A DNA stretch of 64,000 bases from a virus: the IMG/VR virus record IMGVR_UViG_3300036831_000148, positions 82,269 through 146,268 of that record; one strand, given 5' to 3'. A program made the translations under genes and the position numbers. This document shows, in pieces, positions 29,623-46,793 of the stretch. Each line of letters starts with the position of its first letter. The first letter of the stretch is position 1. Below the pieces are notes generated by a model. The model searched no databases, was not told where the DNA came from, and saw nothing but the letters and a program-made list of their open reading frames with translations.

Positions 29623-29708
29623 GCCCTCACTGTACAGATGTACTTGACTAGAGTCAAGGCTAGAGATTATCCTGCAGGTACATCAAACCGGAAGGCAGGC
29701 AAGCCAGG

Positions 29709-30098
29709 ATGAACAAGCCGCTGGTCAGGACTAACGGGGCATACGCGCGGGTCACCCGCGCCGGCGCAGTACAGCTAAACCCCCCTAACGCCTACTGGGA
29801 GCCGGGCAGTGAGAGCCTGCTCGCTGAGTCGCACGGCGCGGCCTCCGTTATTACCCACCTCGTCATGGCGGGCCGCCTCACCGTGAACGAGCTAGCCGGC
29901 GAGTTCCTGCGGCTAGTGGAGGCTGACGTTGCGGCCGGCTACGTGGGGTGGGACATGCCTGACCTGCAGTACCTGTGCGACAACACCGACGCCAACAGTT
30001 ACGGGCTGGAGATACTCGGCTGTGACATGTCGGACGAGGGCATGGAACTTTGGAACAACGTTTACGAGCGTGTTGACGAGCTCCTGACAGGCCGCTAG
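29709..30098 (+). CDS. acidic hypothetical protein (inverted cassette)
   Basis: Plus-strand leader CGGAAGGCAGGCA at 29689; terminator hairpin about 30111-30158. Confidence 0.8.
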   Translation: MNKPLVRTNGAYARVTRAGAVQLNPPNAYWEPGSESLLAESHGAASVITHLVMAGRLTVNELAGEFLRLVEADVAAGYVGWDMPDLQYLCDNTDANSYGLEILGCDMSDEGMELWNNVYERVDELLTGR

Positions 30099-44282: not shown

Positions 44283-44633
44283 TCACTTCGCCGGCTTCCC
44301 GTCATCCAGCACGCACGTGGCCTCGTAGTCGTCCCACCGGCTCAGGAGCTCGGCCACGGGCACGGGGCCGTCCTCAGACTCGCGCTGCACGTAGGCGAAG
44401 AACGCCCCGCCGATCTGGGCGAGCGAGGCGGCCAGCGCGGTCAGCGCCGGCATGACGTCGTACGCGCCGTCCTCACCCTGGCTCAGGTGAGGGGACACCC
44501 GCTCCAGGTAAGGCAGCAGGACGTCTGCCGCCGAGCCGGCGGGCCCTTCGGCCTCGGAGAACTCGATTGCCTGGCGCACCAGCGCCATCGCGGCGAGCAG
44601 GGCCTCGTCCTGCGCCGGGTTTTGACCGTTCAT
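44283..44633 (-). CDS. hypothetical protein, first of operon with 43849-44286 and 43463-43849
   Basis: Leader 44638, palindrome 44681. Confidence 0.75.
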   Translation of the reverse strand: MNGQNPAQDEALLAAMALVRQAIEFSEAEGPAGSAADVLLPYLERVSPHLSQGEDGAYDVMPALTALAASLAQIGGAFFAYVQRESEDGPVPVAELLSRWDDYEATCVLDDGKPAK

Positions 44634-44696
44634 GCTTTGCCTGCCTCTCGGTTGCCTGTGCGCCCAGCCTACCGGCTTCGCTTGACTTGTGTCAAG

Positions 44697-44755
44697 AAAA
44701 AGGTGAGGCCCCCCGTGTGCGAAAGGCAGGCAACCAATCCACGGGGGGCCTCGCC
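44697..44755 (-). terminator. intrinsic terminator with an unusually large 22-nt loop
   Basis: GGCGAGGCCCCCCGUG-[GAUUGGUUGCCUGCCUUUCGCA]-CACGGGGGGCCUCACC-UUUUU. Confidence 0.8.
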
Positions 44756-45506
44756 GCAGAGGGGACGCGCTCCGCGCCGGGCTACTCGGCTAAGTGGGCA
44801 GATCTGGCGCGCCGGGAGACGCCTCGCCCGGCGGGTTCCCCTCGCCGGCGCAGCAGGCCCGAAGGCCTGCCACGATCTTCAGTTGTCCCTGCAGCCCGCC
44901 TAAGCGGGGTAAGACGGGCTGCAGAGCCTTGCGCCCGGGTGCCTGGCCCGGGGAGCCTGTTCAGTTTTCGCAGCGGCCGGGCGCAGGACCAGTCCGGGGC
45001 CGGAACCGCCCGGCCGCCACTTCGACCCATCTGAGGGTGCACCTCGGTAGCCCGGGGTCGCGGCGGGCTACCACTCAGCTAGTCCCCGGGCCAGGTGTTT
45101 CGCTGGTCCGTAGCGGTGTCGGCGCGCCGGCCGTATTTGGTCTCAGCGCCCCTCACGCGTTCGCCAGGTACTTGACCTGGCCCGGGAAGCTAGAGGACAA
45201 CGGCCATCGGTTTCCAACCCCGGCCCGCGGAGACGCCAGGCGGCGAGCCTGACGCGGCGGAAGGCCCTGGCCTAGCAGGGTCCCGCTGCCCTCAAGTCAC
45301 TGTTCAGTTACCCGCCAGGGGCGGTATCGCTAGCGAGTCCGGCAAGCCGGGTTCTGCCGCGCTGTACCCCTCCCTGACGGGAGTCTTAGTGAGCGAGGCC
45401 CTGGGCGGAGGGGGCTGCGGCCTGCTCTGTGGCCGGTGTGCTGCCTTTCGGGCGCTCCTGGCCGGTCCCTCTCTTGCCTGCTCGCTGGCCTTCCGGCCTC
45501 GCTCAC
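44697..45506 (-). ncRNA. candidate long structured ncRNA (about 810 nt) with a 3' anti-leader loop
   Basis: No credible ORF; promoter TTGACA-18-TAGCCT; predicted +1 at 45506 opens a 12-bp stem (45495-45506 with 45389-45400); many hairpins including a cUUCGg loop near 44852-44869; ends in a GC hairpin plus U5. Confidence 0.8.
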
Positions 45507-45512
45507 AACTAC

Positions 45513-45543
45513 AGGCTAAAGGCTGGCCTTTACTCCTGTCAAG
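45513..45543 (-). promoter_or_regulatory. ncRNA promoter overlapping a palindrome variant
   Basis: -35 TTGACA (45542-45537), 18-bp spacer, -10 TAGCCT (45518-45513). Confidence 0.75.
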
Positions 45544-45547
45544 AGAA

Positions 45548-46108
45548 TCAGCGGGGATTCTTCCGGTCCGCCAGCAGCCGCAGCGCGGGCACCGGCCCGG
45601 TCACCCTCTCCTGGGTTCCCCGCTCGCGCTGCCATGCCTGCGCAAGGCCGATGCGGGCGCGCCAGGCGAGCTGGGAGACGGCGGCCGGGCTCAGGCCCCA
45701 CTCAGTTGCCAGGCTGGTCACCGGGAAGCCCTCGACCTCCGTCAGCCACAGTACCTGGCGCCAGCGCGGGGACAGCGTGCCGAACGCCCGGCCCACCATC
45801 TCCCGCTCCTCGGCGAGTACCGCCAGGTCGCCAGCTGCCGGGGCGTGGCGGCGCGGGGCCGGGTCGGCCGCGGGCACGGTGCGCCGCCGCTCGGCCAGCC
45901 AGTCACGGGCGATGTTGCGCACCGCCGCCAGTAGGTAGGGCCGGAACGCGCCGGCCGGCCCCCCGCCTGCCCGCATCGCGGCCAGGACCCTGGTAAAGGC
46001 CTCGGCCACGATGTCGTCGGCCGCGTCCGGCGGGACCAGGGACAGCGCGGTGCGCCTCGCCGCCGTCAGGTGCTCGGTGTACAGCGACGCGTAACCGAGC
46101 TCGGGCAT
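45548..46108 (-). CDS. ECF sigma-70 factor
   Basis: AADDIVAEAF...FRPYLLAAVRNIARD and region 4 LSPRWRQVLWLTEVEG...RAR. Confidence 0.9.
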   Translation of the reverse strand: MPELGYASLYTEHLTAARRTALSLVPPDAADDIVAEAFTRVLAAMRAGGGPAGAFRPYLLAAVRNIARDWLAERRRTVPAADPAPRRHAPAAGDLAVLAEEREMVGRAFGTLSPRWRQVLWLTEVEGFPVTSLATEWGLSPAAVSQLAWRARIGLAQAWQRERGTQERVTGPVPALRLLADRKNPR

Positions 46109-46161: not shown

Positions 46162-46473
46162 CTAGCGGGCTGCGCCGTTCAGCCGCTGGCCCCACCGGGC
46201 GAGCGCGGCGCGCGCCTCCCGGTCCCCGAGCTCGGTAAGCCGGTAGTACCGGCGCGGCGGGCGCCCCTCGGCCGGCGGGTAGATGTCCTCCCAGCGCGAC
46301 GTCGTCCAGCCCTTCTCCTCCAGCCGCCCCAGGATCGGGTACAGCGTCCCGCTGCAGATCCCGGTCGCGGCCCGGACCTGCAGCCCGTACACCTCCCGGC
46401 CGGGCTCAGCGAGCAGCTCGCGCAGCACCAGCAGCGTGGTCAGCGTCATCCGGGGGTTGCGCGGCGCGCTCAT
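46162..46473 (-). CDS. PadR-family transcriptional regulator
   Basis: YGLQV...SGTLYPILGRLEEKGW...RRYYRLT. Confidence 0.9.
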   Translation of the reverse strand: MSAPRNPRMTLTTLLVLRELLAEPGREVYGLQVRAATGICSGTLYPILGRLEEKGWTTSRWEDIYPPAEGRPPRRYYRLTELGDREARAALARWGQRLNGAAR

Positions 46474-46793
46474 GCCGTATCGCCGGTCAGCCGCAGGGCC
46501 ATCGCGCGGTCGGCCTTCCTGCGGGCCGGGTGGGGCAGTGCCCAGACGCACCCGTCGTCAAAGTTCACGCAGAAGTAGTTGCCGTTGTAGATGACCGTAC
46601 TGCCGCAAGACGGGCAGTTCTCCAGCGTCACCCGGCCGCCGTTGCCCCCGTTCACGTCCCGCGCGGTGCTCCAGTTGCAGTTCCGGGTTTCGCAGCGCCA
46701 GTTGCCGAACCGGTAGGTAACCGGGCCGCCGTCACGCGGGCAGGCGTCCCCGGCGACCTGGCCGAAGGACGCACCCGGCTCGCGCCAGTTCAC
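46470..46793 (-). CDS. double Zn-ribbon protein
   Basis: CPRD...C....C and CPSC...C. Confidence 0.65.
   Translation of the reverse strand: MNWREPGASFGQVAGDACPRDGGPVTYRFGNWRCETRNCNWSTARDVNGGNGGRVTLENCPSCGSTVIYNGNYFCVNFDDGCVWALPHPARRKADRAMALRLTGDTA

Follow-up and report, generated by a model that had tools for sequence, protein, structure and literature searches.

The DNA analyzed here (hereafter the window) is a stretch of 64,000 nucleotides, positions 82,269 to 146,268 of the IMG/VR virus record IMGVR_UViG_3300036831_000148, i.e., the last 64 kb of a record of 146,268 bp and 71% G+C for which CheckV estimates a completeness of 97%. Nearly all genes of the window lie on the minus strand, and so does the gene considered here, which encodes a large structured RNA (44697-45506) and is present as a single copy in its own genome. 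Upstream of it lie a PadR-like gene (46162-46551) and a gene for an extracytoplasmic function (ECF)-type sigma factor (45548-46108; Pfam Sigma70_r2 and r4_2, PHROG 1740), and downstream begins an array of short cassettes, each made of a promoter with a palindromic -35 region (TTGACnnnnGTCAA), a 25-30-nt 5' untranslated region (5'UTR) and one to three small open reading frames (ORFs). The promoter of the RNA (45513-45542, minus strand; -35 TTGACA at 45542-45537, 18-nt spacer, -10 TAGCCT at 45518-45513) is of the class represented by about 30 cassette promoters that have the palindromic TTGACnnnnGTCAA -35 region and starts 6 nt past the stop codon of the sigma gene, an arrangement that is the same in all homologues.

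Promoter and terminator together delimit a predicted non-coding transcript of 810 nt (44697-45506, minus strand). Its 3' end is an intrinsic terminator (44697-44752) of the Rho-independent type, with a G+C-rich stem of 13-16 bp (13- and 15-nt strands, 44752-44740 with 44719-44705), a 20-nt loop (44739-44720, GAUUGGUUGCCUGCCUUUCG) carrying UUGCCUGCC, and a final UUUUU tract. The region 44620-45540 is devoid of codon-position G+C bias, which is evident on both flanks, and a coding function was rejected on these frame statistics. Folding is more stable than in shuffled sequences (minimum free energy z-score of -4.4 for the sense strand and -3.45 for the opposite strand). Searches for known RNAs were negative: Rfam 15 at the gathering threshold (with GOLLD, ROOL, OLE, 6S, Ms1, tmRNA, group I and II introns and ribozymes among the families tested) gave no match in the window or in 14 homologue loci, relaxing E to 10 on 44300-45800 returned only chance-level matches of 11-20 bits, ARAGORN found no tRNA or tmRNA, and phage and plasmid collections, searched by blastn with the 911-nt region, yielded no relative.

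Homologues of the RNA were located via the sigma factor. Its relatives fall into about 65 protein clusters (58-69% identity), for the most part from contigs of soil metagenomes, several of which measure about 150 kb, and the family is widespread in such metagenomes. At the same place in related contigs lie 16 full homologous RNAs of 340-1160 nt and two truncated ones (referred to below by locus handles such as L001), and every locus fetched shows the same order of sigma gene, promoter of the same type, gene-free gap, terminator and next cassette. More distant sigma relatives (L013-L017, about 50% identity) have neither this promoter type nor the conserved core described below. A scan of viral contigs with ACACNGCTNCGGACCAG found no additional family member, and a scan of genome contigs with CTGGCGAACGCNTGAG gave at least 120 matches; among the matches listed none passed a second-motif filter, and they were treated as chance, although prophage copies may exist beyond those listed.

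Nearly all homologues share a core segment, CCUGGCGAACGYNUGAG ... CAACAYN'GCUNCGGACCWG, on which a covariance model (R1) with helices P1-P3 was built. In the window this core (module D4, 45085-45186, minus strand) consists of P1 (CCCGGGCCAGGU/ACCUGGCCCGGG), P2 (CUGG/CCAG) and P3 (GCGUG/CA(C)CGC), with internal loops CGAAC/UACGGA and AG/CAA that are invariant across homologues and an apical hairpin that varies. R1 has 17 matches of 62-105 bits, one copy per locus and all on the strand of the sigma gene, and the window copy (45191-45073) scores 97 bits (E 2e-15). The R1 alignment has 97% paired cells and double changes at six pairs, values reached by none of 500 shuffles; with slid partners, as controls, the paired share is 22-52%. 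The cleanest covariation is at the third pair of P3 (GC in nine sequences, CG in five, AU in one), which lies between invariant anchors; P2 flips from U-A to A-U in L228, and P1 occurs in G-C, G-U and A-U states. An alternative core fold, in which CCAGGU would pair with the adjacent ACCUGG, was rejected: L002 cannot form it, and in L228 the two P2 strands change together, from CCUGG/CCAG to CCAGG/CCUGG.

Two further modules carry evidence of the same kind, drawn from three or four sequences: D3 has five pairs with compensatory changes and many G-U pairs, and in D5 one pair appears as AU, CG, GC and UA across four sequences. The core covariation, the compensatory changes in D3 and D5 and the G-U pairs settle that the minus strand encodes a structured RNA. 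An earlier, first-pass annotation of this DNA had already read a structured RNA from the minus strand, and the hexamer ACAACU (21 sense occurrences against none antisense, see below) points to the same strand. The window thus holds a member of a family of sigma-adjacent modular phage RNAs, with a core and helices P1-P3, that is absent from Rfam and unusual in its modularity.

The loop of the terminator is conserved in all 16 homologues as a 20-25-nt loop centred on (C)GGUUGCCUGCC (CGGUUGCCUGCC type, GCCUGCC-centred), whereas other cassette terminators have loops of 3-12 nt; as judged from the sequences compared, this CGGUUGCCUGCC loop is the only universal long-range feature of the family. It is antisense, over 8-16 nt, to the leader that spans the 5'UTR and ribosome-binding site (RBS) of about 25 phage genes, and it is the only antisense copy of that leader in the 146-kb genome. 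The cassette 5'UTR contains two related elements, CAGGCAACC(A/G)A... at its 5' end and CGARRGGCAGGCA at 1-6 nt before the start codon, and the window has 28 matches to GGC[AG]GGC that end 1-9 nt short of a start codon, with CGARR ahead of most of them. In the next cassette (44631-44695, minus strand; promoter TTGACACAAGTCAAG, 5'UTR CAGGCAACCGAGAGGCAGGCAAAGC, AUG at 44633-44631) the leader can form up to 14 bp with the loop. A candidate second anti-leader at about 29700 was rejected, being the ordinary leader of a plus-strand gene. This gene (29680-30060), one of the few on the plus strand, is preceded, in its own orientation, by the common leader (GGAAGGCAGGCAAGCCAGG-ATG), so that the leader follows the orientation of the mRNA and not that of the DNA. 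A separate observation concerns a cassette 5'UTR at 32849-32790, where a tandem leader (GGGGCAGGCAACCGAGCGAGAGGCAGGCA) is the full 14-nt complement of the CUCGGUUGCCUGCC loops of related phages.

The reading to which the highest probability is given (roughly 55%) is that of a master antisense RNA of the RNAIII type, modular in its body and expressed from its own cassette-type promoter behind the ECF sigma gene. According to this model, the terminator loop would base-pair in trans with the shared 5'UTR/RBS (CAGGCAACCGAG-A-GGCAGGCA, 1-6 nt, AUG) of about 25 cassette genes and would block 30S binding, as the C-rich loops of Staphylococcus aureus RNAIII do, while the modular body would supply stability and additional binding functions. 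RNAIII binds the Shine-Dalgarno regions of several mRNAs through its C-rich loops and blocks binding of the 30S subunit (PMC2837412). The phage RNA resembles it as a large multi-hairpin RNA whose 3'-domain hairpin exposes a loop complementary to the RBS of a set of mRNAs, a pairing that is predicted here, and just as RNAIII encodes a small peptide, the L002 homologue has a 46-amino-acid ORF before the RNA. The two differ in that there is no sequence or Rfam relationship, and the phage RNA is phage-encoded, actinobacterial and known here from its sequence alone; moreover, its targets all share one engineered-looking leader, its seed sits in an oversized terminator loop, and its body is composed of exchangeable modules and a repeated linker.

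The leaders recall the start-associated sequences (SAS) and extended start-associated sequences (ESAS) of Cluster K mycobacteriophages, asymmetric motifs that lie a few nt before the starts of many non-structural genes, in one orientation and overlapping the RBS, and for which the partner was left open as a phage-encoded RNA or protein; each K1 genome has one reverse-oriented SAS (PMC3203893). The placement is the same but the sequence is not: the Cluster K SAS is the 13-nt GGGATAGGAGCCC, 3-7 nt before starts, whereas the phage leader is CGARRGGCAGGCA. For SAS no partner RNA has been described, and here a large structured RNA has the reverse copy of the leader in its loop. If the antisense model is true, a single phage RNA would regulate about 25 phage genes at their ribosome-binding sites, and the start-associated leaders of actinophages, long without an explanation, would gain a concrete partner. 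The loop RNA would also be a partner of the type on which, for SAS, Pope et al. did not decide (PMC3203893).

Several observations weigh against this model or against parts of its basis. An antisense role would account for only about 20 of the 810 nt and leaves core, linkers and modules functionally unexplained, in agreement with the earlier remark that some 800 nt is far more than an antisense loop requires. Loop-leader pairing reaches 14-16 bp in the window but just 8-10 bp in L009 and L224, and the cores of loop and leader are both invariant and therefore yield no covariation signal, their flanks agreeing weakly. A generic sigma-70 promoter and terminator scanner flags neither the promoter nor the terminator from which the ends of the transcript were placed; for the terminator, this is because its 20-nt loop exceeds the scanner limit of 8. 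The covariation counts of the core are drawn from an alignment fitted to model R1 itself, and the core is not strictly universal, since homologue L226 lacks it and L221 lacks the 3' strand of P1. Finally, two sites in the 5' module D1 that are complementary to the loop of the same RNA are conserved within the subgroup bearing D1, and one of them (site 1) lies in an accessible internal loop.

The body of the RNA is a succession of helix-closed modules (all coordinates on the minus strand). D1 (45389-45506) is closed by a 12-bp helix (GUGAGCGAGGCC/GGCCUCGCUCAC), contains both of these sites and is present only in the window, L001, L010 and part of L227. D2 (45311-45388) begins with UAAGACUCCC, and its first part alone has a homologue, in L047. 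D3 (45193-45293) is a long irregular hairpin common to L002 and L227, and, beyond the core D4, D5 (44969-45084) is common to L001, L002 and L228. D6 (44888-44956) is specific to this phage, with no homologue, and opens with 15 nt (GCUCCCCGGGCCAGG) that are a second copy of the 5' strand of core P1 (copies at 45190-45176 and 44956-44942). The 3' strand of P1 thereby has a perfect, phage-specific 13-bp alternative partner (45095-45083 with 44954-44942) that would enclose D5 in place of the core.

The 3' domain opens with hairpin Ha (44850-44873; GUGGCAGGCC-UUCG-GGCCUGCUGC), whose 10-bp stem (44873-44850) is capped on the minus strand by the cUUCGg tetraloop (44863-44860) that the first-pass annotation had correctly picked out. 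A helix lies at the same position, just past the last linker, in L001, L220/L222, L224 and L226; as read by eye, its base (GUGG.../...CCGC) is conserved and its interior sequences are unrelated but always complementary. On the other strand, the conserved U-G pair at the base of Ha would read as an A-C mismatch. The UUCG loop is thus a cap peculiar to the window, on a helix whose structure, but not sequence, is conserved. The rest of the 3' domain (44753-44849) is closed by GAGGGGA/UCCCCUC, the window's version of the family-wide GCGAGGGG/CCCCUCGC helix beside the terminator (GAGGAC/GUCCUC in L223).

The near-universal parts of the RNA are the 100-nt core, the 3' domain closed by GCGAGGGG/CCCCUCGC and the terminator hairpin with its CGGUUGCCUGCC loop; the remainder is exchanged. 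Such exchange is seen in L219-L222 (e.g., L222:666-1540, plus strand), four metagenome contigs that encode an identical sigma protein next to RNAs of 520, 520, 727 and 901 nt that differ by whole modules. L222 has an extra block of about 200 nt between two ACAACUSAAGAYCGUGG repeats where L220 has a single repeat (read by eye), the deletion in L221 ends inside the 3' strand of core P1, and L220 and L221 differ also in their first module. Similarly, a module inside the core apical hairpin of L001 occurs elsewhere in L002. The best explanation is that the RNA is a string of independently folded modules, gained, lost or swapped at or next to linkers, with a resulting length of 340-1160 nt. Large structured RNAs are usually rigid in domain order, and module swaps at a defined linker between near-identical phages offer an unusual insight into the evolution of such RNAs. 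The core and the linker, both conserved, are well-defined targets for probing, pull-down and cleavage experiments. As a side observation, the 5' module of L008 (L008:3595-3720) contains a perfect T-arm-like GGUUCGAGUCC/GCGGGUUCGAGUCCCGC beside acceptor-like and D-arm-like stretches in permuted order, where neither ARAGORN nor Rfam makes a call.

The linkers are marked by a repeated motif. The first-pass annotation had noted AACUGAACAG at 45309-45300 and 44966-44957 and AACUGAAG at 44884-44877; all three positions are correct on the minus strand, and AACUGAACAG is an exact 10-nt direct repeat that a repeat search lists independently (D5 in the repeat listing, not the module). The pattern AACTGAASAK, picked after inspection of the data, occurs three times in the 64-kb window, always in this RNA and on the minus strand, against a shuffle expectation of 0.07, and none of 100 shuffles reaches three. 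Across 14 non-redundant RNAs, ACAACU is the most over-represented hexamer (21 observed, 1.1 expected, none antisense). The 30 linker instances in these RNAs (A28/30-C21-A30-A30-C26-U30-S-M-A-N-A25-G) define a 12-nt consensus, ACAACUSMANAG, often followed by AGACUU and then by a G+C-rich helix, with the form ACAAYUSAAGAYCGUGG before the 3' domain. They always lie between helix-closed modules and outside consensus helices (D3 and D5 folds), and their mean probability of being unpaired is 0.69, against 0.34 overall. The window has three: linker 1 (45294-45310, UAACUGAACAGUGACUU; the window form of ACAACUSMANAG(AGACUU), unpaired probability 0.67), linker 2 (44957-44968, AAAACUGAACAG; unpaired in the consensus, 0.80) and linker 3 (44875-44887, GACAACUGAAGAU; at the junction before the 3' domain, 0.90). 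From its sequence and position, the AACUGAA repeat of the window is best described as the local form of a family-wide linker that marks the joints of a modular RNA. Two other ideas about the linker were discarded: mimicry of an anticodon loop by CU-NNA-NA, against which speaks a pyrimidine at the equivalent of tRNA position 37 in 21 of the 30 linkers, and an internal partner AGUUGU, which as a conserved element fails because it is found at the 5' end of the window RNA and L219-L222 only.

These properties allow readings centred on the linker. A tentative one, considered possible at best, is that of a new class of regulatory RNA, large, phage-borne and organized as beads on a string, in which the linker would be both the joint of module exchange and a site of processing or protein loading, so that one transcript would deliver the anti-leader hairpin together with variable accessory modules such as sensors, decoys or sponges. 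A related and rather unlikely proposal is that the transcript is a polycistronic precursor, cut at the linkers by a host endoribonuclease (e.g., actinobacterial RNase E) into stable module RNAs, the 3' hairpin RNA being one of them. The linkers are the only A/U-rich, predicted single-stranded stretches in an RNA of 70% G+C, and every module is closed by its own helix and is independently present or absent. Mycobacterial RNase E prefers single-stranded RN|CNU, which AGACUU fits exactly and ACAA|CU in the first four positions (PMC10641625). However, the conservation of a 12-nt linker far exceeds such a weak context preference.

No likelier than cleavage is the view that the RNA serves as a protein sponge or scaffold, its linkers (two to nine copies per RNA) binding a single-strand RNA-binding protein of phage or host and titrating or delivering it, as the GGA motifs of CsrB/RsmZ do with CsrA. 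The motif is indeed repeated, strand-specific, predicted to be single-stranded and conserved at 12 positions, and its copy number varies with RNA length. Moreover, CAAC is common to the linker, the core loop (CAACAC) and the cassette 5'UTR element (GGCAACC), so that linker and 5'UTR could compete for one factor. The resemblance to CsrB/RsmZ sponges lies in the many copies of a short single-stranded motif between hairpins; the difference is that the repeated motif is ACAACU, not GGA. A search of the phage genome for CsrA, cold-shock (CSD), RNase III and TROVE domains was negative for all four, and ACAACU is not enriched in the rest of the genome (14 sense, 17 antisense). CsrA is not known from Actinomycetota. 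The suggestion, made at first pass, of a repeated motif is supported and extends to the whole family: the motif is conserved, repeated and predicted to be single-stranded, as expected for a protein-binding or processing site.

A different model had been put forward in the first-pass annotation, namely that the RNA is auto-inhibited or forms head-to-tail oligomers, the leader-like sites of its 5' domain pairing with the 3' loop of the same molecule or of another copy, and the loop being freed only by a conformational change. The two sites are real: on the minus strand, site 1 (GCAGGCAA, 45474-45481) and site 2 (CGAAAGGCAG, 45441-45450) are complementary to the 3' loop over 8 and 10 nt, respectively, and the repeat search lists the latter complement independently (I9). 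Of 300 dinucleotide-shuffled versions of the RNA body, about 2% reach a Watson-Crick match of 10 nt with the loop. The best loop-body duplex energy in the window is ordinary (p ~0.5), since at 70% G+C many partners are equally stable. In the consensus fold of D1, derived with L001 and L010, site 1 falls within an internal loop that is mostly free of pairing; its sequence is the same in the window, L001, L010 and L227. Site 2 is taken up by a local hairpin (GCGCC-CGAAA-GGC(A)GC), of which it makes up the loop and the 3' strand. The L001 version of site 2, GAAAGGUAG, preserves this hairpin by means of a G-U pair, whereas the flank of the L001 terminator loop is CCCUGCC in place of CCUUUCG; the site did not follow the altered flank, and there is thus no covariation between site 2 and loop. 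Both sites use the CUGC of the loop and so cannot bind it at once. A third leader-like site that the annotation had missed (GGCAGGCC, 44871-44864) is base-paired throughout, being the 5' strand of the UUCG hairpin. In addition, D1 contains an internal direct repeat (GGCCAnnGAGCAGGC, at 45434-45420 and 45490-45476) that yields a second, weaker leader-like element (GAGCAGGCCG).

The D1-bearing subgroup is the only one to keep sites 1 and 2. A complement between body and loop beats shuffles only in the window, in L002, where it is a true leader, and in L219-L222, where an exact copy of the leader sits in the apical hairpin of the core (duplex of -37 kcal/mol, p 0.01-0.05); GGCAGGC/GCCUGCC helices recur within several RNAs, and the 13-bp alternative partner for P1 in the window might likewise favor a switch. 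However, six of the 16 homologues (L009, L223-L226 and L228) have no self-complementary site better than shuffles, so that this is not a trait of the family. The variation of module order and number between near-identical phages fits a defined oligomer poorly, and a module content of 520-901 nt among such phages argues against a fixed quaternary assembly. Conserved intermolecular complementary elements of the kind found in self-assembling RNAs (phi29 pRNA or ROOL/GOLLD type) are not present. GOLLD, ROOL and OLE form homo-oligomers (PMC12286853), an assembly of the sort put forward at first pass, and the phage RNA resembles them in its several hundred nt and many conserved helices, some of those RNAs being phage-borne as well; unlike them it has no Rfam match, the intermolecular pairing proposed for it is not conserved, and it varies three-fold in length and in module content where they are fixed in domain order. 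The switch or multimer is accordingly considered quite unlikely; certain lineages may be capable of self-pairing, but it is not the conserved trait of the family.

The sites may instead say something of the origin of the gene. Together with the GAGAGG that follows, site 1 reads CAGGCAA--GAGAGG, i.e., the 5' element of the standard cassette 5'UTR (CAGGCAACCGAGAGG) minus 2 nt, and at the position of site 1 L002 (L002:6634-6774) has an intact leader and the 46-amino-acid ORF (MYAGEYYADGDNYY...) after the RNA promoter, the structured RNA forming the 3' part; the L002 transcript is thus possibly dual-function. The simplest reading of these sequences would be that site 1 is a remnant or mimic of a cassette 5'UTR and that the RNA gene derives from a cassette.

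A role like that of 6S or Ms1, in which the RNA would bind RNA polymerase or sigma through its core, e.g., sequestering the host holoenzyme in favor of the phage sigma factor, is very unlikely. Its appeal is the position of the RNA gene behind the sigma gene in 16 of 16 loci, with the promoter abutting the sigma stop codon, and a core that is a long irregular hairpin with invariant internal loops; yet these loops are small, with no large bubble resembling an open promoter, no Rfam match to 6S or Ms1 was obtained, L226 is without the core, and the anti-leader loop would be unaccounted for. That there is no RNA gene at all, the region being decayed coding sequence or a DNA-level element (origin, packaging site or protein-binding repeats), as its coding-like G+C and the better-than-shuffled folding of both strands might suggest, can practically be dismissed given the compensatory changes that preserve helices, the G-U pairs and 21:0 strand asymmetry of ACAACU that indicate an RNA from one strand, the missing frame signal, and the promoter and terminator that bracket the region in every homologue.

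Two observations concern the remainder of the record. Outside the window, about 32.9 and 33.9 kb before its position 1 and in minus sense, lie tRNA-like sequences with GGUUCGAAUCC T-arms, which make it probable that the phage has tRNA genes. The contig also has a direct repeat, at least 56 nt long, at a distance of 44 nt from either end.

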